From Candidatus Kerfeldbacteria bacterium (GTDB taxonomy: Bacteria > Patescibacteriota > Patescibacteriia > SBBC01 > CAIJZX01), in the NCBI GenBank assembly GCA_903825245.1, contig CAIJZX010000012.1:76059-140058 (forward strand): a stretch of 64,000 nucleotides of DNA, given 5' to 3'. The notes under the pieces were generated by a model that saw nothing but the letters and a program-made list of their open reading frames with translations, had not been told where the DNA came from and searched no databases. Below, in pieces: positions 18,813 through 31,730 of this stretch (its first letter is position 1; each line of letters opens with the position of its first letter). A program made the position numbers and the translations under genes.

Positions 18813-19820
18813 CTAGTGATGACCCGGCCATATCGTCCAGAAAACCAAGACGATAGTCGAAACCGCTGCTAGAACCATGACAAAATTAAACCAAGTCCCC
18901 TGAAACCATCTCCTTGACTCTGTGTTTTCCTTTGCAAGGTGTAATACGGGGTGGTTGACGGTTCCAGTGCTTGCTTGTCCTACATTTCCATGAATGATTT
19001 GGACATTGGCTGCAGGAATAGGTATTTGAGTAACTGGTTTTGGTTGTGGCTGAATATCCCAGCACTCCTTGGTTTTGATTTCGGTACCAGTTGGGATTGA
19101 AGTAAATACATCATGATCCACAGATGTAACTTCTTCTTGCTTCCGACCCATTGCATCAAGAGTTGGAGGATTCGGAATATGCCGCTTTTCGTCTACCGGG
19201 GTTGTAAACCGAGCGAACACTGGAGCGTGTTTGCTAACATCTCTGATTAACGTTACGCTTGATACACTTTCAATGTTGTCTCCGGTTGGGTATTTAGCAA
19301 GCTCCGATTCACTTACCGGAGTAAATCTATCAAGGCGATAACCTAAAGCATTACGAGTTACACTATCCGGAATGTAGTATTTTTTATCTTTGAAAACTAC
19401 GAACTTTCGGTCGTTGACGTCTTGGATTAAGATCGCCTTACTCCATGCCCATTCAGAATCAAGTTGTTTTAATGTAAGTTCATAGGTTCGAGGGCTATTG
19501 TCAGTCCTAAACTTACGCTCGATTCTTCGTGATGGAAGACCCTTTTCAATTTCAATCCAAGACACTACCTGTGTAAGTTCTGTAAGTATATCCTCATCAA
19601 CTCGTTTTTTATTTGCGTCGTTACGAATCTGGTATCGAAGTAGGTCTTCAGAAATATCAACAAATATGTGCGTCACATCACCTGCGCTCCTCTGCGTCAC
19701 TTTAACAACCATTAGAGCCAAATCGTTGAATGGCCCCTCATACTGAAGTGGACTTATTTGAAGATCAAAAAGTCGTCCCTGTCTGTCCTGATATTCGGTT
19801 TGTATCGTTTGGCGTGGCAT
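18813..19820 (-). CDS. Hypothetical protein with two internal repeats and C-terminal TM helix
   Basis: KKYYIPDSVTRNALG...VSESELAKYPTG and EKRHIPNPPTLDAMG...VDHDVFTSIPTG; hydrophobic C-terminus. Confidence 0.7.
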   Translation of the reverse strand: MPRQTIQTEYQDRQGRLFDLQISPLQYEGPFNDLALMVVKVTQRSAGDVTHIFVDISEDLLRYQIRNDANKKRVDEDILTELTQVVSWIEIEKGLPSRRIERKFRTDNSPRTYELTLKQLDSEWAWSKAILIQDVNDRKFVVFKDKKYYIPDSVTRNALGYRLDRFTPVSESELAKYPTGDNIESVSSVTLIRDVSKHAPVFARFTTPVDEKRHIPNPPTLDAMGRKQEEVTSVDHDVFTSIPTGTEIKTKECWDIQPQPKPVTQIPIPAANVQIIHGNVGQASTGTVNHPVLHLAKENTESRRWFQGTWFNFVMVLAAVSTIVLVFWTIWPGHH

Positions 19821-19898
19821 AGAAAATAAACGCCTATAGTTTACGCCTGTCCGTTTCCCCTGTCTACAGCCCGCCGACGATTGACGAAATCCCCGATT

Positions 19899-20483
19899 TT
19901 ACGAAGTTAGGAGAGCGAGAAGAGCGTAGGCGCCAATTCCTAACAATACAGTCGGAAGGAGCACGGCAAAAGAACGGCGGCGATCTTTCCAAGAGCGGGG
20001 TAGAAAAATCACCATGATAATTCCGATCAGAATAGAAACCCAACCTGCTGGCTTATCCTGGATTTTAACCAGTTCATACCAACCTTCCGCGATAAAAACA
20101 CCACCCATCAGGGCTGAGCCGATAGCGGTGCGCCAGGAATTAGCCGCATGTCGCCACCAGTAACCGGACAAGCCGAATACAGGTCCACCAACCAAGGCAA
20201 CTGAACTCCACAATGCTATGGCAGAAAATCGATATGTGTACCCGAGAACGGCAGCAACAATTGTATAGCTTAGCAGTGCCAAAACGAGGCTGAGGAATCC
20301 CCCGACCATTGCCCATGTAGTCGATCGCATCAACGCTCCGACCACAAAGGCGGCAACTAGCCAGACCGCACCAGAGTTCGCGAAATGATTCCAGCTTCCC
20401 GGCAATGCTCCTTGCCCAAGAACCGTTAACGCCCCGCAGGCCAATCCGACGCCGATCATCAAGAATATGCTTTTTCGATTCAT
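19899..20483 (-). CDS. Membrane protein, DUF6518-like
   Basis: ANSGAVWLVAAF, GGPVFGLSG, FIAEG motifs. Confidence 0.65.
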   Translation of the reverse strand: MNRKSIFLMIGVGLACGALTVLGQGALPGSWNHFANSGAVWLVAAFVVGALMRSTTWAMVGGFLSLVLALLSYTIVAAVLGYTYRFSAIALWSSVALVGGPVFGLSGYWWRHAANSWRTAIGSALMGGVFIAEGWYELVKIQDKPAGWVSILIGIIMVIFLPRSWKDRRRSFAVLLPTVLLGIGAYALLALLTS

Positions 20484-20540
20484 GGCTTCAAGTATAGGTT
20501 GTATTCCTTCTGAATGGAAGGAGCACATTTAATAAAATGA

Positions 20541-20569
20541 TTGACATAATGCCTTATTTTCGCTACTAT
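20541..20569 (+). promoter_or_regulatory. sigma70 promoter of tRNA-Lys
   Basis: TTGACA-17 nt-TACTAT. Confidence 0.8.
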
Positions 20570-20586
20570 TTGCACGCTATCTTTTT

Positions 20587-20661
20587 GGGTTCCTAGCTCA
20601 ATGGTAGAGCAACGGCCTTTTAAGCCGTGGGTTCTGGGTTCGAGTCCCAGGGGACCCACCA
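20587..20661 (+). tRNA. tRNA-Lys (anticodon TTT), CCA encoded
   Basis: GGGTTCC/GGGACCC acceptor, GCTC/GAGC D arm, ACGGC-CTTTTAA-GCCGT, CTGGG-TTCGAGT-CCCAG, ACCA. Confidence 0.97.
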
Positions 20662-22418
20662 GCCAACAATTTGCGCCCCGAACTCATCCCGGCGATATGC
20701 CCAAGGATGTCTTGGGGCAACTTCAATTTAATACGTATTTCATAGGGTAAAAGTTGTTTTTCCTTACGTCGTCCGGCAATGCTGTCTTCCGCAGTGGAAG
20801 GACGGGAATATATAATGATCTCCTCGATCAGGGCATGAAGAAGCTGGTCGAGCTCCCGGCGGTCGCCAAAAATATCATTAAGTGCCTCCGAGTACTTTTT
20901 ATTGAACACATTAAGGCTAGAAATGTAGCTATCTGGCATTGCGTTTTTTGAAATGAGTAGGTCTAGCTTTTCCAATTCAGCTGTTAGTAGCACAATCTGC
21001 TTCTCCAACTTCTCCATTTCCTCTTTAAGCTTCGGCTGTTTGATATAACCAAGCTTATGCTGTTCCAAGATATTGTTTTTCCTCGCTGGCATTGCATCAA
21101 GCAACTGTCGCAACTGCTCTCTTTTCTTGGCGAAGTGTTTCTTTTCCGATTGTGTAGATTTTAGTTTTTGTTGGTACTTGAATACAGCCTCTGGGTTTTG
21201 TAAAAACTCTTTTGTCTTAGTAACTACATATCGTTCTATTTCTTCGGCTGGCAATGGAATTGTAAAACAATTTATTTCGTATTTGCTCGTATTTTTTCGA
21301 GCACACTTGTAGTAATAGGCAAAATTATCAGGCGCTGTTGTAAGCTTCTTTCGTTCCCCAATCCACCGATACATTGTAGGATCAGCGTCCGGCTTGAAAC
21401 ATGCATCACATTTAAGTAATCCTCTTAATAAATATATGTGTCCTTCTCGGGGCTCATCAATGATGTTTTTTGTCTGGGCAAGTATGTTTTGGGCTTTTTC
21501 AAAAGTCCCTACATCAATGATCTGTGGCAATGCATAGGGTGAAATACTCCACTTAGAAGGTTCTACCCGCTTACCGTCTCTTGTTTTACCAAAGTAGTAT
21601 TTACCAATGTATATGGGGTCTTTTAATATCTCTCTTACAATTTCCATTCGCCAAAAGTTCGGCGAACTCTTCTTTCTTATTGCCCCTTTATATTCTTTAT
21701 ACAAGACTGATGATGTTTCAGGTGAAGGCCGCTCCTCCTCCGTGAGTATCTTCGCGATCCGCTGTGCGGAAAGTTTTTGTGAAACGCACATGTCGAAAAT
21801 TGATCTGATAACTTCGGCTTCGGCTTCGAAGATGACCAACCTCTTTTCACTGTCTTTAATGAAGCCGTATTTCATGCCCGATCCCATGACAACTCCGTTC
21901 TTAATCGCTTGTTCCCGTCCGGCTTGTGTTCTTTGCTTGATCGTCTCAACTTCTAATTCAGCGATGACACCAATGATGTTCAAAATCGCCTTTCCAAAAG
22001 GTGTAGACGTGTCTATGCTCTCTGTTGCCGACAAGAATTGAACGTCGTATTCACCGAAAAAGTCGATAACTTCTAAGAGGATTTTTAATCGACGTGCGAA
22101 ACGATCAATTTTGTATACCGCAACTGCGTCGAAAGGCCTGTCTTCGGGTGTAGAGTTTGTGAGATCCTCTTGAAGTTTCGCAAAAGCAGGTCTCTCTGGA
22201 AGATCAACGGTACCGCTAATCCCTTCATCAAAATAAATATACTGATCCCCAGCGAGAACCATTGCATCAAGCCCATTATCGAGTTTTCCTCGGGCTTTTA
22301 TCAAGCCTAGTAACGCTTCTTGTTGGAGCTTTTTTCCGTACCTCTCAACCTGCTCATCAGTCGAAACCCGCAGGTAGAGAGCGACGCGGAGAGACGATTG
22401 TTGTTGGTTTCCGATCAT
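20598..22418 (-). CDS. Large serine recombinase (integrase)
   Basis: YLRVST.EQ catalytic Ser, DEGISG, RP.F, DRFAR, recombinase domain, LLRGLLKCDAC...YYKC zinc ribbon and coiled coil. Confidence 0.95.
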   Translation of the reverse strand: MIGNQQQSSLRVALYLRVSTDEQVERYGKKLQQEALLGLIKARGKLDNGLDAMVLAGDQYIYFDEGISGTVDLPERPAFAKLQEDLTNSTPEDRPFDAVAVYKIDRFARRLKILLEVIDFFGEYDVQFLSATESIDTSTPFGKAILNIIGVIAELEVETIKQRTQAGREQAIKNGVVMGSGMKYGFIKDSEKRLVIFEAEAEVIRSIFDMCVSQKLSAQRIAKILTEEERPSPETSSVLYKEYKGAIRKKSSPNFWRMEIVREILKDPIYIGKYYFGKTRDGKRVEPSKWSISPYALPQIIDVGTFEKAQNILAQTKNIIDEPREGHIYLLRGLLKCDACFKPDADPTMYRWIGERKKLTTAPDNFAYYYKCARKNTSKYEINCFTIPLPAEEIERYVVTKTKEFLQNPEAVFKYQQKLKSTQSEKKHFAKKREQLRQLLDAMPARKNNILEQHKLGYIKQPKLKEEMEKLEKQIVLLTAELEKLDLLISKNAMPDSYISSLNVFNKKYSEALNDIFGDRRELDQLLHALIEEIIIYSRPSTAEDSIAGRRKEKQLLPYEIRIKLKLPQDILGHIAGMSSGRKLLAGGSPGTRTQNPRLKRPLLYH

Positions 22419-22532
22419 AGGACAAGAGAGGTAACTAGCCCAGAACTATGCAAACATGATTATCATACTCGTTTTATTGCTATAAAGCCATAATTGCTAA
22501 CCCGAGGTAATTAAACTATAATTCAATCTGTT

Positions 22533-22703
22533 TCCGAGGCCTAGATGCTCATTTCTACAATTTACTTAGCCTAAACTTCGGCCTATGGCCGGGGCACGGC
22601 GATCAAACCAAGAGAGGCGAACAGCTCCTAGTCAGAGCACCTCTCTTGGTCGTGCGTGGAAACGCGCACGGGTGGCCGTAAGGTCATCGCTGGCTAGGGG
22701 CTT
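22533..22703 (+). ncRNA. Candidate multi-branch structured RNA (unassigned)
   Basis: 11-bp perfect stem, two GNRA-capped stems, closing helix; TTGCTA-17-TATAAT promoter at 22494-22522. Confidence 0.5.
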
Positions 22704-22743
22704 TGTGTTTGTACAAACCCGCCGCCAGATATTTACAAAATAT

Positions 22744-22971
22744 ATGGCACAGGCAAAAACTGTTGGAATTATGAGCTTGGTTATTCTCGGCACATTGTTG
22801 CTTGGGACTACTTTTTGGTGGTTTCAGCTACGCCCATTTTCTGACCATAGGGCATGCGCGAAATATACTACTACCCAAGCAGAAAAGATGGATTTTGACC
22901 TCCATACGCCCATTTACTTTCCCGGTTATGGTGTGGTTTATGACATGTGCTTACATGGTAAGGGCTATTAA
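22744..22971 (+). CDS. Small membrane protein
   Basis: MAQAKTV start, TM, FWWFQLRP...C...YDMCLHGKG. Confidence 0.6.
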   Translation: MAQAKTVGIMSLVILGTLLLGTTFWWFQLRPFSDHRACAKYTTTQAEKMDFDLHTPIYFPGYGVVYDMCLHGKGY

Positions 22972-22974
22972 CGT

Positions 22975-23835
22975 ATGCAAATACTTCTCTGGTTGGCTTA
23001 CGCCGTTGTCGGTATATTCGTGATAGTGTTTCTCGCTGGTGGAGTTACTGCCGCTGTAAAGAATTCAGGAAAAAGAAGGCGTCTCCATTCTATAGGGGCA
23101 GTAGCACAAATTCCTGCTGATTTAAGGATAATCATGCGTGAGATTTATACTGCACATAAAAAACAAGACGTTGCACTCGTAAACTCGGTTACCGTTTCCA
23201 CTGGCATCGTGCAACTAAATAAAATTCTAGAATTGATGAAGCCAGAAAACCGACTCAAATACCTATCAGCAGGTATGCAGGGCGATGTGACTGCTTTTAC
23301 GGCAATGGAGAACGAGCTAGTATCAAGAAACTACAAGGTCAATGCGGCAAAGATTGTTACTGGTATTATCCTGAATGATCTCGATGATCCGCTTTTGAAA
23401 ATGAAAGGGCAGGAGACAGCCCCACCTTCCCCAAGTGCTAAGAGTAAAATCCTTCTCTTTGAAGATGACAAGATATTACGAACTTTGTATGAAGCAAAAT
23501 ATCATCAACAAGGGTTTGACGTTGCTGGGTATGACAATCCAACCAGCGACCCGGTGAGCGTTGTTTTGAGAGAAAAGCCTGATGTGATTTCAATGGATAT
23601 TGTCATGCCAATTATGGACGGGTTTACTGCAACCGAGTTGCTGAAAACCGATGCGCGAACAAAAGGTATTCCCATTGTTATTTTTACTAACCATGCACAG
23701 CATAAGGACATTGATCGTGGCAAGGCATTGGGTGCGGCGGATTACCTGATCAAAGCACATTTTACGCCTGATGAGGTGGTGGATCGTTTTCGGCGGGTTC
23801 TCAATTTAAATGACGTAGCAAATCGTAAACTTTGA
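22975..23835 (+). CDS. Membrane-anchored protein with C-terminal response-regulator receiver domain
   Basis: N-terminal TM; KILLFEDD, SMDIVMPIMDG, IFTN, DYLIK. Confidence 0.85.
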   Translation: MQILLWLAYAVVGIFVIVFLAGGVTAAVKNSGKRRRLHSIGAVAQIPADLRIIMREIYTAHKKQDVALVNSVTVSTGIVQLNKILELMKPENRLKYLSAGMQGDVTAFTAMENELVSRNYKVNAAKIVTGIILNDLDDPLLKMKGQETAPPSPSAKSKILLFEDDKILRTLYEAKYHQQGFDVAGYDNPTSDPVSVVLREKPDVISMDIVMPIMDGFTATELLKTDARTKGIPIVIFTNHAQHKDIDRGKALGAADYLIKAHFTPDEVVDRFRRVLNLNDVANRKL

Positions 23836-23856
23836 AGCCGCTAATCGATTATACCT

Positions 23857-24855
23857 ATGAGCCACTTCACTCCTCAAACTAGAGCACTCTCGATCCTCAC
23901 TTTAATCACGGGGTTATTACTACTTGGCGCATCTTGCTCAAATAAAAGAGCGATAGATACGAACACAACTAACTCAAAGGTTACAGAAACCAACAATGCA
24001 GTATTGGCCAATATAAACACCACATATTCTAACCAGAATACTTCGGTTGTTGTAAATAACTCGGTAAATCCATCATCCAACTCGAATCAATCTATTACAA
24101 ACGGAAAAGTTGTTGTACAACCAAAAAACACGAATACGGAGAAAAAAGTATTAAATACCAACACGGCTCCAAAAGTGTTGAGCACCAACACTAACGTGGA
24201 TGTCCCACCAGCTACAACACCTGCGCCCACAGCGCGGCTAACAGCATCAACAGATTGCCCAGTTTTGCAACCGGCGGTGCTGACTTGGAATACAACCGGC
24301 GCTCAAACCGTCACATTAGAATCCTCAACGGGTGGGGATCGCCAGACGATAGACATACAAAATGCGGCTACGGGAAACGTAACTATAAATTCTCAAAAAA
24401 CCACGAGCTATTATCTAACTGCAACAAATCAAAGTGGACAGAAAGCAACGGCGCAGGTTCGGCTAGATCGCCCAAACGTAGACCCTAACTATCCGATTAT
24501 CACCGGCTACGCCGATACTTTGGGCGTGGTTTCTCATTCATCAAGCTATAACGGGTATGGCTGTGGTGGTAAGGGTCAGCCGATTGCACACATCGGCGAC
24601 ACCATAACGTTAACTGTTGACGCGTATGATCCGAATGGCGATCCGTTGGTATACAGATTCAGCTCAGTGTTTCCATCAGCCATGGGTGTAACCAGTGGTT
24701 GGACAAGCAGTAGCACCTATACGTGGACATTCACTTCTGCTGATGTGGGGTCGATGAGATGCGTCTATATTTCCGTAAAAGATAATGACGGGTATGACCG
24801 AATTGCTGATTATGACGATACAAGCCCTGCTTGCTATGATATTGCACACCCATAG
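23857..24855 (+). CDS. Lipoprotein with Asn/Thr-rich stalk and Ig/PKD-like domains
   Basis: LLLGASC lipobox; LTWNTTGA...TTSYYLTATN; DAYDPNGDPLVYRF. Confidence 0.75.
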   Translation: MSHFTPQTRALSILTLITGLLLLGASCSNKRAIDTNTTNSKVTETNNAVLANINTTYSNQNTSVVVNNSVNPSSNSNQSITNGKVVVQPKNTNTEKKVLNTNTAPKVLSTNTNVDVPPATTPAPTARLTASTDCPVLQPAVLTWNTTGAQTVTLESSTGGDRQTIDIQNAATGNVTINSQKTTSYYLTATNQSGQKATAQVRLDRPNVDPNYPIITGYADTLGVVSHSSSYNGYGCGGKGQPIAHIGDTITLTVDAYDPNGDPLVYRFSSVFPSAMGVTSGWTSSSTYTWTFTSADVGSMRCVYISVKDNDGYDRIADYDDTSPACYDIAHP

Positions 24856-24903
24856 TTACGTTAACAGCGCAGTAAGTAATCAACAATGATTAGCTAAAAC
24901 ATT

Positions 24904-25161
24904 ATGCCGAGATTAAATTCAAGTGACAACGAGGACGAGATGAGTTCAAGGTTACGGCAAGGGGTTCTTGCTACTGTATTGACTTTGTCGCTTATCGGAT
25001 TAGGCGCGGCTGTTTTCGACGTTCACCATGTCTGGTGGGAAAATGATACGGTACAGGGAATACAGATGCTCTCATTGATTGGTGTGTTCTACTGCCTATT
25101 GGCAACATTGCTCAAAATTCTTAATAAAAAGAAACTATCCGAGGATAACTCCGAGGATTAG
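24904..25161 (+). CDS. Small two-TM protein
   Basis: 85-aa ORF with two hydrophobic segments. Confidence 0.55.
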   Translation: MPRLNSSDNEDEMSSRLRQGVLATVLTLSLIGLGAAVFDVHHVWWENDTVQGIQMLSLIGVFYCLLATLLKILNKKKLSEDNSED

Positions 25162-25435
25162 CCCTTCCTGGTAATTTACTACTTAATTAACGAATCTTTC
25201 TTTGGCCGTATTTGTCAATACGTCGATAGATTTTTTAGTAACTTCCGGCGCACTTGTGCTGGCGTTTTTTTCTTTGTTGAAATGAGGGTGATCAATCGCT
25301 TTTTCATATAATTGAGTATACCATCCGCCCTTATCTTTCCAAGGGTACTCTTTGAATCAAGATAGCAAAAATTAGGAGGATGTGGTTTTATGGACTATAA
25401 TTGAGTAGTTAAACCGTGCAATCTCGTTATTGGCA

Positions 25436-28400
25436 ATGATCCTAAGTGCAGCATTAGACCGAATAAACGACCCCGAAGTGTCCTTATTTGTTTTGTTATT
25501 GCTTATTATGGTAGGAATCATCTACCTTTCCCGATGGATAGTTCAAAAGATCAAGGAGAGTGGAAATACAATTTCGGCAAAGACGAACAAAGAATACAAG
25601 AATCTATGTAAAAAAAGAGAGTTTTTTTGGCACAGGCTATTTAGGGATTTTTACGCCCCCTCAGTACGCTCTTCAATTGCAATGGGTGTAATCGCATTTG
25701 GAATATATGCGTTGTCACACTTTATCCAAACAAAGAGCCAAACCCTTTCTTTTGTTAATGGCAGTCACTACCAAAACTTGATCGCAATTTACTCTGGTAT
25801 CGCCGGCATTATCTTTGCACTTATAATCTTTGTCGCTGAAAGCTTGCGCGATGAGCAATCACGCGATCAAGCACGCGTAATACTTCGAACGACTTACCTA
25901 TACCCACTGGTGGTTCTTGCTGTTCTAAACTATAGCGTTTACGCATGGGGAGACGTCAATTCTCTTGGCGTAGTCCCCGTTTTATTTCTTGGAGCATTTT
26001 CTATTTTTTCACTTTTCCGTCTATTTAGAATACTCTTAGATAGGAGTGAAAACTTTAACCAAAAAATTAAGTTGCTAACCGATCGTTTGAGGCTAAGTAT
26101 TGATGGCGCTATTCGTCAGCGACTGGGTAATGTGATTTTATTTAAATGGCTTACTGATTATAAAATACCGATTTCCTTCTACCCGTTTACTACGGAGGGC
26201 TCAGCATACTACAATTTTACTTCAAAAAAATCGGGAATTGTTGCAGACATCGATCTGGGAAAACTCGAAGACTTTGCCAAAATGGTTGAAGAGGCGGCAA
26301 ACAAGAATGATTTTAGTTTTTTTGGCAGAGAAGGAAAGGCGCTATCGATCAATACATCGACGGATACGACGGAACCAAGTGAGGGCAGCACTAGAACGTA
26401 TTCAAAGAATGATCACGTATATTTTGGCAAGCTATACAGAGACGAGGTCAAGCTTGACGACGTGCTTCTTTCTGTTAAAAAAGACATCATCGGCGATCAA
26501 AAGAAGGTGCTAGATAAGCTCAATGCCACTTTTAAAAAAATCTACGTAGTAAAAAAAGAAGAGCACGGTATTTCCGAACAAAACCGACTAGAGCTTTCCG
26601 CACAGAAAGACCAATTTATAGCCGCTGTAAAAGCGGGAAGTATGGGAAAGATAAGAGAGGGCTCGGCAATATATTTAAGCCTTGCAGAGACTTTTCTAAA
26701 AGCCCTCAATGAATGTGGCGGGGGTTATAGTTTTGATCAAGCTCGCCGCGAAATGGGTTCGATAATTAGCCGTTGGAATGAAGCGGATTGGCTTCAAGAG
26801 GATATTAGCGAAATACATAGAGCAGCACTAGACACGCATGATCAAAACGTGATTGATGAAATTGCCTTTTTGCCTATGAAGATCGTGAGTCTAGCCATAG
26901 AATCACGAGACCATTTTATTTTTCAGACCTTCATTCAGTTTCAATTGAGGTTGTATCTCGGATCACTGCGCGAGAATGATACCGATTTAAAGAGGCATTT
27001 GCTTGATCGTTCATGGCGATATTTAAAAGAATCTGCTGATTTTTGGGTCGAGCACGAAATAACAAAGGAAGATAATGAGAAAGATATTCCTAGGTTGAAG
27101 GATTTTGCTATATACTACTTTTCTGTATTTCAGACCATACTGCGGGAAGCCGTAATAAAAAAGGACAAAGATGGGTTTGAGCTCTTCGCAGTTGCCCTTT
27201 CAGGCTTGTTTGATTCTTTCAAATATACCCTTGAAGATGAGCGCACTCGGCAACCAGTGGCTGATGCTATTAAGGAAATTTGGTTAAATAAAGACCAGAT
27301 GATATTTGGCCTAACGAGCTGGATTTTTTCAGAATATAAAAAGAATCCAAACAATGAGACAACAAAAAGTTCATACGGAAAAATTCAGTCCCTAATAAAA
27401 AACAATATAGTTGATTTAACGTCTACCTTTCTATCAGTTCATGACTTTAAAGTAGGTGATTTCTGGGGATGGGATCGTTGGGATATGATTGCCGATGGTC
27501 AGGTGCATACTATCGATGTTAGCGGGAAAATAGAAAGATATTTTATTGTTCGCGGGTTGAAGATACTAGCCACAATGACTGACGATAACATTCGAGCCAT
27601 AGAACTACCGACGAACCGAAATATGGCATTTCAGGCTGATAGCGGTGGCGGCTTGCTTATGGTATTGGAGCAAATTCAAAACAATCAAAGTGATTGGGAT
27701 GCGCACCTTACCCCGGTTGAAATTGGGAAAATTGATCTTTTTAAGGCACTTCTCCAAAAGGCGAAGGCGAAACAAGAATCAGACGAGCAAGAACAGGTAA
27801 AGGCTAGTCCAATCAGCGAAAAGAAGAGGAAAGAATTCATTCAGGAGTTTCTTGAAGGCTATCGTCAGTCGAGTTATTTCCGTCATATCGTGAAGCACTA
27901 TGGCAATTTGGTCGAAAAACCAAATGATCAAATTTCAGAAAACAGACTGGGCGTGAATATGGTGGAAGATAAGCAAGTCTTCTTTGAGCACTGGCACGTG
28001 CACTACTCCAAATGGGGTAACCAGTTTGGGCACGACATGGCCAGAGCCGAAAATGACAGCATACTTTCTAAGGTCGTTAGTTTTAGTGCAACTCTAAACG
28101 AGACGGACTTAGATCAAGTTATTGAAAGATTTACAGAAAAGAACGACATCATCATTATCGCTTTAAACCAAGCGATATTTGGATTCTTCCATCAATCAAA
28201 CAAATTTGAATATAAACGTTTTGATGATCCTGAAAAAATACCATCATACAGTCAGGAGGGGTGGTGGAAGATTGATCAAAACCTCCGTATCCCAGTTTTT
28301 GAAATCCATGACCGTAATCAGAACAACGCCATCCTAGTTTTAAACAAGAAAAAAATGGGTCGATTAGAACAATACTCGCCATTGCGTGATGCAGAACTGC

Positions 28401-28636
28401 CTAGTGACCAAGTTGAACATTTCTATTTTTCCATTAAAGCTTTCTCAGAGAATCCTGATTTGATGACAAAGATCATATCCAATCCGCCTGCTTGGTTAAC
28501 GGAGAAGGGAAATGAAGAACAACAAAAAGATCACCTCAAAGGAAAGGTGTGGATGAAAATATATGAGTCCTATGCCTATAACAAGGGTGATGATTTTGAG
28601 GGGTATATTTTCCCAGTTGCTAACCCGCTAGTCTAG
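25436..28636 (+). CDS. Large membrane protein (N-terminal TM bundle, DUF2254-like; long helical cytoplasmic region)
   Basis: About 1066-aa ORF, about 5 N-terminal TM helices, AT-rich; family call is inference. Confidence 0.7.
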   Translation: MILSAALDRINDPEVSLFVLLLLIMVGIIYLSRWIVQKIKESGNTISAKTNKEYKNLCKKREFFWHRLFRDFYAPSVRSSIAMGVIAFGIYALSHFIQTKSQTLSFVNGSHYQNLIAIYSGIAGIIFALIIFVAESLRDEQSRDQARVILRTTYLYPLVVLAVLNYSVYAWGDVNSLGVVPVLFLGAFSIFSLFRLFRILLDRSENFNQKIKLLTDRLRLSIDGAIRQRLGNVILFKWLTDYKIPISFYPFTTEGSAYYNFTSKKSGIVADIDLGKLEDFAKMVEEAANKNDFSFFGREGKALSINTSTDTTEPSEGSTRTYSKNDHVYFGKLYRDEVKLDDVLLSVKKDIIGDQKKVLDKLNATFKKIYVVKKEEHGISEQNRLELSAQKDQFIAAVKAGSMGKIREGSAIYLSLAETFLKALNECGGGYSFDQARREMGSIISRWNEADWLQEDISEIHRAALDTHDQNVIDEIAFLPMKIVSLAIESRDHFIFQTFIQFQLRLYLGSLRENDTDLKRHLLDRSWRYLKESADFWVEHEITKEDNEKDIPRLKDFAIYYFSVFQTILREAVIKKDKDGFELFAVALSGLFDSFKYTLEDERTRQPVADAIKEIWLNKDQMIFGLTSWIFSEYKKNPNNETTKSSYGKIQSLIKNNIVDLTSTFLSVHDFKVGDFWGWDRWDMIADGQVHTIDVSGKIERYFIVRGLKILATMTDDNIRAIELPTNRNMAFQADSGGGLLMVLEQIQNNQSDWDAHLTPVEIGKIDLFKALLQKAKAKQESDEQEQVKASPISEKKRKEFIQEFLEGYRQSSYFRHIVKHYGNLVEKPNDQISENRLGVNMVEDKQVFFEHWHVHYSKWGNQFGHDMARAENDSILSKVVSFSATLNETDLDQVIERFTEKNDIIIIALNQAIFGFFHQSNKFEYKRFDDPEKIPSYSQEGWWKIDQNLRIPVFEIHDRNQNNAILVLNKKKMGRLEQYSPLRDAELPSDQVEHFYFSIKAFSENPDLMTKIISNPPAWLTEKGNEEQQKDHLKGKVWMKIYESYAYNKGDDFEGYIFPVANPLV

Positions 28637-28707
28637 TTAGCTTTATCCGGCCAACATCAAAGTAAAATCGGACTTTTCATTTTGTTTTTTGGTGCTATGG
28701 TTAATTT

Positions 28708-29127
28708 ATGGCTACCAGTAAACAAATCAAAACGGCAAGAATTATGTCCGAAAATGTCCGAAAATCGGTGTCCGCCGCCATGCGCGACGCTGGTTATTCA
28801 AATCGCTCGGCCGAGAAACCACAGCGGCTCACTCGGAGCAAGGGTTGGCAGGACTTGATGGATGAACACTTGCCTGATAAAACACTGCTAGGCGTCCATA
28901 AAGGCCTGTTACGAGACCCTGATTGGCGGGCGCGGGATTCTGGTCTAGATATGGCTTATAAACTCAAAGGCTCCTACAAAGCCACCAAGGTAAGTGTAGA
29001 GGATTCACTTGAACACTTGTCAGACGATGAGCTTGATGTGTTACTAGCCGAGCAGAAGCCAGCTATTGAACGGTATCAGCAATACAAAAGAACAAGACGT
29101 CATCCCGCTGCGCAACCGATTAAGTAA
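28708..29127 (+). CDS. Terminase small subunit-like HTH protein
   Basis: SAAMRDAGYS.RSA..P..LT.SKG and C-terminal LEHLSDDEL pattern of phage TerS. Confidence 0.6.
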   Translation: MATSKQIKTARIMSENVRKSVSAAMRDAGYSNRSAEKPQRLTRSKGWQDLMDEHLPDKTLLGVHKGLLRDPDWRARDSGLDMAYKLKGSYKATKVSVEDSLEHLSDDELDVLLAEQKPAIERYQQYKRTRRHPAAQPIK

Positions 29128-29135
29128 ACGATTGA

Positions 29136-29318
29136 ATGACCATGTTGACCGACAAACAGATCGAGGAGTTTCAGGCGCTTTATAAAAAGAATTTTGGGAC
29201 TGATATTAGCCGAGAGGAGGTGCTAGAGTCGGCTATTCGGCTCATTAACCTGATCAAAGTGGTATACAAACCGATGACAAAAGAAGAGTACAAGAGGTAC
29301 TCCGACGATCTGAGATAA
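29136..29318 (+). CDS. Small hypothetical protein
   Basis: MLTDKQIEEFQALYKKNFG.DISREE...L.NL..VVYKP; I recall this type next to CPR serine-integrase elements, unverified. Confidence 0.7.
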   Translation: MTMLTDKQIEEFQALYKKNFGTDISREEVLESAIRLINLIKVVYKPMTKEEYKRYSDDLR

Positions 29319-29328
29319 ACTAGATGCC

Positions 29329-29589
29329 CTACTTTTTTCTTTTTCTTACGGCACTAAATAACTTGTGAAGTAGCTGATCGTCGTCACTTGCAGTTGAAGA
29401 TATAGCCACATTGATCTTAGTGCCTGCGTGTAGGCCGGTTCTTACGACTGGGGCGTTGTCCGTAGATAAATGTTGTTTTACCCGACCAGTATGATCCCAA
29501 GCGGTTGCAATAAGGGAATCACCAATGCCAAGTTTATCGGTTTTAGCTCTTGGTTTGATTAGCCTTTTGATTGATTGAGGTAACTTCAT
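29329..29589 (-). CDS. Small basic hypothetical protein
   Basis: 86-aa ORF at the right end of the island. Confidence 0.5.
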   Translation of the reverse strand: MKLPQSIKRLIKPRAKTDKLGIGDSLIATAWDHTGRVKQHLSTDNAPVVRTGLHAGTKINVAISSTASDDDQLLHKLFSAVRKRKK

Positions 29590-29722
29590 GTATATACCTA
29601 TTAGCTTGTCGTAGGGGGCTTTTACGGGCTCCTAGACGCTTAATGTGGCGGTCTAAGCCCACGCAGAGTATAACAAAGTTTAGCCCTTTTGGTATAATTG
29701 AGTTCGGGGTAGAATGTGTTGT

Positions 29723-29991
29723 CCCACCAAAAACTAGCTATTACCAGACATCTGTATCGAAGATACGGAGTGTTTGGATATGAAAAATTGGGACGAGAAG
29801 GGCCGAGCACTTGCGCCGGTGGCGCGAGAGCGCAGGCCCCGGCTCGACGAAGTGCCGTTGCCGGGAACCCCGCAGGGTCGGCAACAAGCTTCGGCGAGGA
29901 GTCCCAGGGGACCCACCAAAAACTAGCAATTACCAGACATCTGTATCGAAGATACGGAGTGTTTGGATATGAAAATTGGGACGAGAAGGGC
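29723..29991 (+). repeat. Tandem direct repeat (about 80 bp, 29723-29803 and 29912-29991) with GC-rich structured spacer and a 20-bp tRNA 3'-end copy (29899-29918)
   Basis: Direct sequence comparison. Confidence 0.9.
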
Positions 29992-30004
29992 TGTTTTGGG
30001 TTGC

Positions 30005-30661
30005 CTACGCCGCGTATTTGATGATGGCGAAGTAGTGCAGGACGGTTCCGGCGATCACGAAGATGTGCCAGATGAAATGCGCGTACGGCAGGCGTTTCGC
30101 GTTAAAGAAGGCAATCCCGCCGATATAGGCGACTCCCCCGGCGCCGAGCCAAGCGAGTACCCACGGCGACGCTTGCACCCACAGTGGCCGAGCCGCAATC
30201 ATAATCAGCAAACCCATGCCGACGTAGAGCATGTTCGAGAGATGACGATTCGAGAGTTTTCCTAAAGATTTCAGAACGATACCGCCGGCCGCGAGGATCC
30301 AGATCGCCCCGAACAACGGCCAACCCCAGGCGCCGCGCAAAACGCCAAGCGTGAACGGTGTGTACGTTCCGGCGATCAGCAGATAAATGCCGCTGTGATC
30401 AAGGACGCGAAAGACTTTCCGCGCTCGCGGATGTGGAATAGCGTGATACAACGTCGAACCGAGATATAAGAGTGAGGCACAGCCGATGAAGATGCTCACG
30501 CCAACAATATCCCAGGTGGTGCCGTGGTGAATCGCATGGAGAATCAAAAACGGTGCACCGACAATCACCGCGACAACGCCGAGGCCGTGGGAAATGCTGT
30601 TGGCGATTTCTTCGCCAATTGTTGGCTGGCGTTCACCTGGCCGCTCTTTGTCACTTTCCAT
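30005..30661 (-). CDS. Hemolysin III / PAQR-family membrane protein
   Basis: EEIANSISHG, STLYH, LDHSGIYLLIAGTYTPF, HFIWHIFV. Confidence 0.93.
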   Translation of the reverse strand: MESDKERPGERQPTIGEEIANSISHGLGVVAVIVGAPFLILHAIHHGTTWDIVGVSIFIGCASLLYLGSTLYHAIPHPRARKVFRVLDHSGIYLLIAGTYTPFTLGVLRGAWGWPLFGAIWILAAGGIVLKSLGKLSNRHLSNMLYVGMGLLIMIAARPLWVQASPWVLAWLGAGGVAYIGGIAFFNAKRLPYAHFIWHIFVIAGTVLHYFAIIKYAA

Positions 30662-30803
30662 AGATGTTGATTGGAACCAAATAGTGAACACTCTTGAACC
30701 TGCACCGTAACACAAGGAGGCTGAAAAATCAATGAAAAATGCTTGACGACACGGTGTATATAGCCTACGCTTGATGTAACACCAATTACCAGTCAACACG
30801 TCT

Positions 30804-31730
30804 ATGGACAATCCACCCCTCGTTCCGCCGCAACAGCCGCCACACCACGTGTCTGTCGGTAAGGCTATCGTCAAAGCTCTTGGATTTGGTTTGCTCCTAG
30901 CCATACCAATGACCTATATATTTACTTTGGGTATTGGAACTGTTATAAGCTATTTCCGACTGAGCTATCACTGGGGACTTGGTGGAATTTTTGTTGGCCT
31001 AGCAATCATCATCTACGCCTTTATCGTGAATGCGATCATCATGGTTTTGGCGACCTTTATCACCCTCGAACGATCATCGCGACCGTACGTGCACGCCATT
31101 TTGATTGGCCTACTCATCAACGTCATCGCTGTCGCCGGAGGCTGGGGGTATAATTTGTACACGCACCAAGGTCAACTTACACAACTCGCTGTCGATCGTA
31201 ACAACGACAAATATGTTGATGCAAAAAAATTGAGTGATTGTGCTAAGCTAACAGAAGTGAACGCTTGGACAATTTGTATCAAAGATAAGATCATTGACAC
31301 CACTACGTTAGCGACCTGCAAAACGCAAGCTGCACGATACGGTGGTTCGAATAGTGAAGCTGCATTAACCTGTCAGGATCGCTTCATTATCAATACCGGC
31401 GCTATAGCCCAATGCAACGATTTGCCGCTTGTTGGATCCGACCCAAACAGCCAACGGTATTGCCTGCTCGACACCATTGAGAAATCCTGGGAAAAGAATA
31501 ATCGAAAAACTCCGGCATCAATCGTGGCCGGATGCTCTGGAATGGCCAATGCCGCGGAAAAACAATTCTGCTATGTCGCTTCCCTTCGGCAGTTATCCAA
31601 AGGTGATGCCGCAGCCGCGGCCGCTTGCCAAGGTATCAATCCTGCTGTCTGGTTTGGTATTGTGAATAATGCCAATAATGATTTGACCAACATTCAAACC
31701 ATTTGCGGAATTACGATCACCGCGTCGTAA
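30804..31730 (+). CDS. Membrane protein with Cys-rich extracellular helical repeats
   Basis: 3 TM helices followed by regularly spaced Cys pairs. Confidence 0.75.
   Translation: MDNPPLVPPQQPPHHVSVGKAIVKALGFGLLLAIPMTYIFTLGIGTVISYFRLSYHWGLGGIFVGLAIIIYAFIVNAIIMVLATFITLERSSRPYVHAILIGLLINVIAVAGGWGYNLYTHQGQLTQLAVDRNNDKYVDAKKLSDCAKLTEVNAWTICIKDKIIDTTTLATCKTQAARYGGSNSEAALTCQDRFIINTGAIAQCNDLPLVGSDPNSQRYCLLDTIEKSWEKNNRKTPASIVAGCSGMANAAEKQFCYVASLRQLSKGDAAAAAACQGINPAVWFGIVNNANNDLTNIQTICGITITAS

Follow-up and report, generated by a model that had tools for sequence, protein, structure and literature searches.

A Large Serine Recombinase Island at the CCA End of a Patescibacterial tRNA-Lys Gene and Its Relatives at Other tRNA Genes

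Introduction

Which bases does a large serine recombinase exchange when its gene ends inside a tRNA gene, and what does it recognise there? The question is raised by a 64-kb stretch of contig CAIJZX010000012.1 (the window, i.e., the whole 64,000 nucleotides of DNA that were analysed) from the 1.3-Mb genome of an uncultured bacterium of the Patescibacteria (candidate phyla radiation, CPR), in which a recombinase gene runs into the 3' end of tRNA-Lys(UUU). From the comparison of this locus with its relatives, a large serine recombinase very probably inserted an island of 9,068 bp here by exchanging strands with a two-base stagger at an AC, whose A is the discriminator base of the tRNA and whose C opens its CCA end. 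A second and more tentative reading concerns recognition: the clade to which the enzyme belongs may use the tRNA gene itself as one half of its chromosomal attachment site, attB. The features on which both readings turn are the following:

20587..20661, plus strand: tRNA-Lys(UUU) gene (ARAGORN; Rfam tRNA, 72.9 bits)
20633..20686, plus strand: predicted attL, in which the tRNA T arm and acceptor strand form the B half-site, AC at 20658-20659 is the centre, and a P' half-site ending CCCCGAACTCA follows (sequence, repeat listing, family alignment)
29699..29753, plus strand: predicted attR, in which a P half-site starting TGAGTTCGGGG precedes the central AC (29726-29727) and the native tRNA trailer forms the B' half-site (sequence, repeat listing, partner scan)
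20598..22418, minus strand: large serine recombinase gene, 606 amino acids as integrated (Pfam Resolvase, Recombinase and Zn_ribbon_recom; translation; tail lengths)

The Ends of the Island

Because ARAGORN and Rfam both place the tRNA-Lys(UUU) gene at 20587-20661, A20658 is assigned as the discriminator base and C20659 as the first C of CCA. The gene stays intact after the insertion, with its terminal CCA spanning the exchange point. Read 5' to 3', the left end runs from the tRNA-Lys gene (...GGGGACCC-AC-CA) into GC-CAACA-ATTTGCG-CCCCGAACTCA (20658-20686); the right end reads TGAGTTCGGGG-TAGAATG-TGTTG-TCCC-AC-CA (29699-29729). The size of 9,068 bp is measured from the attL centre (20658-20659) to the attR centre (29726-29727). 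In terms of composition, the G+C content is 0.37-0.47 in bins lying fully inside the island (21000-29499) and 0.42-0.57 in bins lying fully outside, two ranges that overlap.

Joining the two ends at their common CCCACCA produces a dyad whose centre falls between A20658/A29726 and C20659/C29727. The 11-mer TGAGTTCGGGG has two copies in the whole window, inverted relative to one another (20676-20686 and 29699-29709), and still two when one mismatch is allowed; by simple arithmetic, the chance expectation for an exact 11-mer is about 0.03. A repeat search delimits the arms at 20664-20686 and 29699-29721 (23 nt, 78% complementary), perfect over the outer 11 nt and the inner 5 nt, with each inner arm 4 nt away from the AC. 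A preliminary description of this DNA had reconstructed a symmetric attP, the attachment site of the element, with 11-bp outer and 5-bp inner inverted arms centred on AC, and both direct reading and the repeat search find it correct to the base. In the rebuilt attP, 18 of 26 arm positions are symmetric, and the identity between attP and attB extends over 7 nt. A scan of the island and its right flank for partners of the left arm at the same dinucleotide places the best at 29726 (16/24), the runner-up reaching 12/24.

The sequence to the right of 29729, which comprises AAAACTAGC and a terminator-like hairpin, resembles the tRNA-Lys trailer of a relative (G008) that begins AAAACTAGTC. The attB predicted beforehand, namely the tRNA end followed by AAAACTAGC, is supported by this genome, where tRNA-Lys is followed by AAAACTAGTC.

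The Recombinase

The enzyme is encoded by the sole large serine recombinase gene of the source genome. Its N-terminal part matches the Resolvase domain (PF00239, 1.9e-30, residues 12-176), followed by matches to the Recombinase domain (PF07508, 1.9e-19) and to the zinc ribbon (PF13408, 5.4e-4); no match to DUF4368 was found in a Pfam search of the protein. Across 36 family members, the residues S19, R17, D105, R106 and R109 as well as the zinc-ribbon cysteines C337, C340, C372 and C384 are invariant or nearly so. The integrase had been called intact; it is full length, and the catalytic serine and arginines and all four zinc-ribbon cysteines are present. In large serine recombinases, directionality is controlled by a coiled coil inserted into the zinc ribbon; here, judged by eye alone, heptad-like repeats of K, E and L are numerous between residues 400 and 520.

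The reading frame crosses attL, so that residues 1-588 come from the island and the last 18 codons from the antisense strand of the tRNA gene. In the excised form, the frame would run on for 59 residues and overlap the start (29589) of a gene for an 86-amino-acid protein by 47 nt. Since the 3' end of the recombinase gene contains attP, integration swaps the tail of the protein, which would have 59 residues in the circle (647 amino acids in all) and has 18 in the integrated form.

In protein databases, 358 relatives at E <= 1e-30 were found among the candidates scored, the best at 56% identity; the few named source organisms are Levybacteria, the Parcubacteria group and Minisyncoccia. The best annotated phage integrase, that of phiFC1, is about 30% identical, plasmid matches are no nearer, and relatives in the PDB align with the catalytic domain alone. 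The NCBIfam models of CcrC, XisF and CcrB score 94-97 bits and that of CcrA 62.5 bits; because their cut-offs are 375-900, the recombinase is not a member of any of these families.

Homologous Islands and the Point of Exchange

Among 401 genomes of the same class, 11 contain a match at E <= 1e-20, and one of them (G317) encodes a 605-residue recombinase that is 53% identical to that of the window. Its gene ends inside tRNA-Ala(UGC), and its island spans 11,410 bp, from CACCA-N14-CCCCGAAC on the left to GTTCGGGG-N15-CACCA on the right, after which a terminator hairpin follows. Rebuilt, its attP has the geometry GTTCGGGG-N16-AC-N16-CCCCGAAC, with a spacing equal to that of the window island.

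Searches of genomes and viral contigs with the single protein confirmed no related locus, and it is an alignment-based search that found them. The alignment-based scan, run on one genome per species, returned 78 loci, 63 of which, at 38-61% identity, constitute the family considered here. In 55 of the 63, the recombinase gene converges at its 3' end on a tRNA gene; six of the remaining eight loci stop at a contig end. With the window included (n = 56), the target tRNAs are Val (20), Lys (13), Gly (10), Glu (9), Leu (2), Ala (1) and Arg (1), and the recombinase frame reaches or crosses the exchange point in 53 of the 56. Viral contigs contain three family members, two of which are integrated, at tRNA-Lys and tRNA-Val.

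To map the exchange point, the 24 nt lying 3' of the dinucleotide made of discriminator and C were taken, and their reverse complement was sought before the same dinucleotide beyond the recombinase gene. A symmetric attP with at least 15 of 24 arm positions could be rebuilt in 30 of the 55 searchable loci (29 and the window), and in 24 of 55 at a threshold of 16/24; when the arm is displaced by 1-3 nt in either direction, only 1-6 of 55 reach 15/24 and 0-3 reach 16/24. A looser test based on 8-mers alone gives 34 of 56 loci at the symmetric spacing against 6-18 at other spacings. The 30 mapped islands measure 3.5-11.4 kb. Their centre dinucleotide is AC in 23 and TC in 7, and all seven TC cases are tRNA-Gly genes with a T before CCA. 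The search required the same centre dinucleotide at both ends, and its identity is thus given by construction; the match of the arms and the missing identity around the dinucleotide are independent of this requirement. Past the dinucleotide, attP and attB have no identity to the left in 7 of the 30 islands and none to the right in 12; in one (L063) both sides lack it, and AC alone is common to the two sites. Because the flanking identity is absent on the left, on the right or on both sides in these islands, the exchange can only take place at the dinucleotide of discriminator and C. The crossover proposed for the window, at the AC of discriminator and C74, is borne out by the tRNA-Ala island of identical spacing and by the 29 further family islands.

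Three loci from three genomes (L043, L044 and L045) encode recombinases that are 98.3-98.8% identical, yet lie in tRNA-Lys(UUU), tRNA-Glu(UUC) and tRNA-Val(GAC), respectively. One identical attP is rebuilt from all three, and their trailers are unrelated. This points to one type of element that recently moved between different tRNA genes and hosts.

The window itself also contains a perfect 20-nt direct repeat of the tRNA-Lys 3' end (20642-20661 and 29899-29918). Since repeats of such length are a classical mark of tRNA islands, one may ask whether the island is instead 9,257 bp long and bounded by these copies in the manner of tyrosine integrases, the inverted ends being incidental. The open reading frames scanned in the island include no tyrosine recombinase (no Phage_integrase match), and the AC inside the second 20-nt copy reaches at most 12/24 as a partner of the left arm against 16/24 at 29726. 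The second copy is moreover the end of a separate element:

29790..29918, plus strand: X, small structured element ending in the 20-nt copy of the tRNA-Lys 3' end (29899-29918), outside the island (comparison with relatives, copies in the same genome, structure)

The repeat and about 110 nt before it form a GC-rich unit (about 110-130 nt) that occurs elsewhere without any island. In two relatives (G009 and G010), tRNA-Lys is followed by a short trailer, by X and by a 20-21-nt copy of the tRNA end, with no insertion at CCA; in the source genome, X also follows tRNA-Pro, where it ends in a copy of the tRNA-Pro end. As 29 homologous islands terminate at the dyad, the direct-repeat reading is very improbable. 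The placement of attR at 29699-29729, preferred in the preliminary description over the 20-bp match at 29899, thus stands, upheld by the G317 island of the same spacing, by the 29 further family islands and by the island-free relatives that carry the 20-nt copy.

Additional copies of attP were also sought. A second, inverted attP was not found inside the window island (best internal match 27/54), and in the family, matches of 15/24 or more near the start of the recombinase gene occur in 13 of 55 loci, no more commonly than in a control stretch.

A side observation comes from an IMG/VR contig of 10,084 nt (L134, 9840-10084), on which no tRNA is called 3' of the recombinase gene. What lies beyond the centre resembles either a degenerate T arm or an attP arm whose spacing is off by one, with a clean fit to neither; this locus could represent the element before integration or its insertion at a pseudo-site.

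The tRNA Gene as Half of the Attachment Site

According to Rutherford et al. (2013), separate dimers of a serine integrase bind attP, a pseudo-palindrome of about 52 bp, and attB; cleavage of all four strands at the central dinucleotide is followed by rotation of the subunits and rejoining, and this dinucleotide is the sole identity needed between the two sites. In their model of the Listeria integrase, attB repeats the zinc-ribbon motif of attP (positions 16-24) 5 bp further inward (Rutherford et al. 2013).

In the mapped family islands, the distal ends of both attP arms share the consensus AGTTCGGGGT. The tRNA half of attB (B) keeps GGTTCGA.TCC, and the other half (B') is almost unconserved. 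GTTC occupies positions 22-25 in both P and P' and positions 18-21 in the tRNA half of attB, which corresponds to an inward shift of 4 bp; it has no counterpart in B'. The window follows the same pattern, the T-loop GGTTCGA lying 4 bp closer to the centre than the AGTTCGG of both attP arms. This layout agrees with the logic of the Listeria model, though with a shift of 4 bp and on one arm only, and the zinc ribbon is inferred to read the T loop; the difference from the 5 bp of that model is a point against the proposed mechanism.

By analogy, one recombinase dimer would bind attP and another attB, with a four-strand cut at AC, subunit rotation and rejoining. The tRNA itself would constitute the B half of attB and an arbitrary trailer the B' half, with the T-loop GGTTCGA read by the zinc-ribbon domain in its shifted attB position; integration would exchange the recombinase tail and part the gene from the small conserved gene downstream. 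The broader proposal is that the whole clade uses a tRNA gene as half an attB, where the universal T loop is the shifted zinc-ribbon motif, the discriminator and C74 are the exchange dinucleotide and the other half is free. If the T loop and the discriminator/C74 are read and the other half-site is free, one enzyme could therefore land in Lys, Glu and Val tRNA genes; a change of the centre from AC to TC would retarget it to tRNA-Gly. Taken as a whole, this proposal falls somewhat short of an even chance. Were it true, the clade would provide a natural serine integrase whose target is defined by structure and could be retuned via the central dinucleotide.

The same observations can be read in terms of poor specificity. 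TnpX and TndX are serine transposases of low specificity, and an enzyme of this kind might have the tRNA end as just one of many targets; its occurrence, at 98% identity, at three different tRNA genes and the unconstrained B' half-site would both fit. However, a tRNA 3' end is the location of 55 of the 63 family loci, and wherever the exchange can be mapped, it falls on the same tRNA position. The recombinase also shows no match to DUF4368, the mark of the multi-targeting clade of Durrant et al. A transposase of low specificity is thus highly improbable.

As a separate observation, the T loop is missing from the truncated 20-nt copy at 29899, in which exchange point and trailer are preserved, and it is the full tRNA that the island occupies; one such case proves nothing.

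Mobility of the Island

Whether the island can still move is a separate question from its probable insertion by a recombinase. Serine integrases recombine attP with attB independently of host factors, and for excision they require a directionality factor. The ends may be as described and the island nonetheless a fixed relic that is unable to excise, either because the recombinase or its sites are dead or because a directionality factor is missing. In favour of a relic, no circle, empty site or second copy was seen, no excision factor was recognised and the closest public relative of the protein is only 56% identical. Conversely, the recombinase is full length with all conserved catalytic and zinc-binding residues, both attP arms retain the family motifs, and near-identical family members at three different tRNAs indicate that the family moved recently. 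On balance, a relic seems rather unlikely, with some weight left to it.

Several results weigh against the insertion and its proposed mechanism. The zinc-ribbon match scores 20.7 bits, below the gathering score of 25.3. A right end is lacking at threshold in 25 of the 55 searchable loci; some of these have too little flank, and others, in a subgroup that targets tRNA-Val, have arms of lower symmetry. In a lake-water study, four runs contain 22-38% of the sampled words, and over 19300-31200 they yield short contigs at a depth of about 1-5, with no joint and none crossing either junction; they give no direct sign of movement, nor any verdict on excision. No strain-level empty site was found, the nearest genomes being about 72% identical in the flanking gene, and an exact-word scan of metagenome contigs for the tRNA trailer gave 0 matches. 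Finally, Pfam, PHROGs, PADLOC and NCBIfam scans of the island recognised no recombination directionality factor. As to the comparison with empty sites in relatives, proposed at the outset as a check, the tRNA-Lys ends of G009 and G010 are uninserted, and no empty site in a close relative was found in the collections searched.

Relation to Known Systems

Phage serine integrases such as those of Listeria A118/LI, Bxb1 and phiC31 share the three-domain architecture of the window recombinase. In the model of Rutherford et al. (2013), they also share a pseudo-palindromic attP of about 50 bp with 25-bp half-sites and a distal motif of 8-9 bp, a non-palindromic central dinucleotide as the sole required identity, and a distal motif that, in the window on one arm, seems to lie nearer the centre in attB. 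By comparison, the attB of the window is the 3' end of a tRNA gene rather than a protein gene, one attB half is conserved, attP lies inside the recombinase frame, the motif shift is 4 bp instead of 5, and sequence identity is at most about 30%.

The Ccr recombinases of SCCmec and XisF, which give the best NCBIfam matches, also belong to the large serine recombinases and likewise insert or excise an island where a conserved housekeeping gene has its 3' end. The genes they target are rlmH and fdxN and not a tRNA. For the tRNA islands of tyrosine integrases, Williams reportedly distinguished sublocation classes in 2002, with the crossover at the 3' end of the acceptor stem or at CCA. These islands resemble the window clade in landing at a conserved place, the tRNA 3' end, and in restoring the end of the gene; the clade differs by its enzyme family and chemistry and by the lack of a long direct repeat, the identity being 2-14 nt. 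In the Myxococcus phage Mx8, attP is located within the integrase gene intP, and the Int protein is a tyrosine recombinase. There, integration alters the 3' end of the integrase gene and the tail of the protein, as in the window recombinase.

Of 937 elements of Prochlorococcus, 27 have a large serine recombinase in place of the tyrosine enzyme, and the maps show tRNA and part-tRNA genes (Hackl et al., preprint). Tycheposons and related elements in that preprint are, as here, small cargo islands; they differ from the window island in host phylum, their proteins are seemingly unrelated, and the consulted sections of the preprint describe no serine-type exchange point or attP. In the multi-targeting clade of Durrant et al. 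(2022), DUF4368 occurs in 63% and the targets are many unrelated protein genes, whereas the window recombinase has no match to DUF4368 and its family targets tRNA ends in 55 of 63 loci. The word tRNA is absent from the main text of Durrant et al. (2022), whose supplements may list such targets. In the literature searched, no description was found of serine integrases that exchange at the tRNA discriminator, or of tRNA-targeting ones in these bacteria. The system is of a known kind, the serine integrases, in a seemingly undescribed variant that combines a tRNA-end target, one conserved attB half-site and an attP inside the gene.

Serine integrases are valued as tools because they need just two short sites. 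To our knowledge, their natural targets are almost always single protein genes. The clade comprises more than 100 proteins that are 45-56% identical to the window recombinase, mostly from uncultured ultra-small bacteria, and it appears to exploit the one sequence feature common to nearly all tRNA genes, with the exchange fixed to two bases. This would represent a common and apparently undescribed route by which small cargo islands enter the genomes of ultra-small bacteria. If the tRNA gene indeed serves as a half-site, the clade would show how a serine integrase works with one conserved attB arm, and would offer enzymes with a predictable landing site for organisms without genetic tools; the tool potential that the preliminary description saw in the integrase and attachment sites of the window is so far a hope.

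Cargo and Accompanying Genes

Between the recombinase gene and the right end lie the following features:

22568..22688, plus strand: LOOT RNA (Rfam RF03000), separating the recombinase gene from the cargo genes (79.1 bits; gathering score 46.4)
22975..23835, plus strand: cargo, 286-amino-acid membrane-anchored protein with a response-regulator receiver domain (Pfam PF00072, 1.1e-16; translation)
23857..24855, plus strand: cargo, 332-amino-acid protein with a lipoprotein-like signal peptide and no family match (Pfam, PHROGs, PADLOC and NCBIfam scans; translation)
25430..28636, plus strand: cargo, 1068-amino-acid protein with a hydrophobic N-terminal part and no family match, with a weak relative in 1 of 29 other islands (family scans, translation, island comparison)
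28708..29127, plus strand: cargo, 139-amino-acid protein, 51% identical to the protein at the same place in the G317 island (island comparison)
29329..29589, minus strand: 86-amino-acid protein; its small family, marked by the C-terminal motif SS.E.D..QLLH.LF, accompanies these recombinases (island comparison)

The cargo also counts a membrane protein of 85 amino acids, and its small proteins number three; as a whole it is predicted to consist of membrane and secreted proteins. In PHROGs, the receiver-domain protein alone is matched (five families of unknown function); PADLOC gives no match on the island, and NCBIfam matches only the recombinase and the receiver domain. Across the Pfam, PHROGs, PADLOC and NCBIfam scans, no phage, conjugation or defence gene was recognised in the island. 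An inovirus-like prophage (cf. Roux et al. 2019) was considered and found no support, as no Zot-like or other phage gene was recognised.

The recombinase is the only gene common to all 30 islands. Relatives of the 86-amino-acid protein occur in at least 15 of the 30, always co-oriented with the recombinase and located either just upstream of its gene or, across attP, just downstream. In the excised circle of the window island, the gene would lie directly downstream of the recombinase gene, and integration parts the two. The protein has no match in Pfam, PHROGs, NCBIfam or PADLOC, and it is a candidate accessory or directionality factor.

The LOOT RNA also occurs in the G317 island (L036, 2246-2371, minus strand; 72 bits). 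In the window, it overlaps the arginine-rich and probably spurious start of an open reading frame at 22585-22971. Its use as a hallmark of the family was rejected; beyond the window it was found in G317 only, one of the seven other loci scanned. The paper that introduced the LOOT RNA does not discuss it in its main text.

The X Element and the Duplicated Trailer

Next to the island, a stretch of about 81 nt from the tRNA-Lys trailer, which takes in the first 14 nt of X, is duplicated (29723-29803 and 29912-29991, period 189, 96-100% identical). The resulting order of the locus is tRNA end, trailer, X, 20-nt tRNA end and trailer; either a tandem duplication or two insertions of X would account for it.

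X is GC-rich and about 90-135 nt long, and 17 matches to it were found in 8 of 61 genomes searched, all of the family of the source genome (f1) and with up to five copies per genome (window 29790-29918; L015 1634-1769; L021 1637-1755; L115 1498-1630; loci L118-L132). A co-oriented tRNA lies just upstream in 15 of the 17 matches, X starting 31-170 nt past the tRNA end where this was measured, and the upstream tRNAs cover at least 11 anticodons and 8 amino-acid families. In the copies read, the 3' end of X is an exact or near-exact copy of the last 18-24 nt of a tRNA gene, nearly always that of the same upstream tRNA; the exception is L122, where it copies a part-tRNA copy lying in between. The 5-9 nt that precede the conserved GAAGGG core change with the tRNA, because they are the reverse complement of the T loop and T stem of that tRNA.

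A three-helix structure pairs 84% of cells over 14 copies against 35-46% with slid partners, and 12 of 22 pairs in its helices show changes on both sides. Rfam returns no match for X; a small integrative element, a guide-like sequence and an RNA whose 3' end resembles that of a tRNA are all conceivable. On contig C2 of the source genome (L115, 1349-1450), a 49-nt stretch that repeats part of tRNA-Pro(CGG) lies between this tRNA gene and X, an arrangement that suggests repeated events at this tRNA end too.

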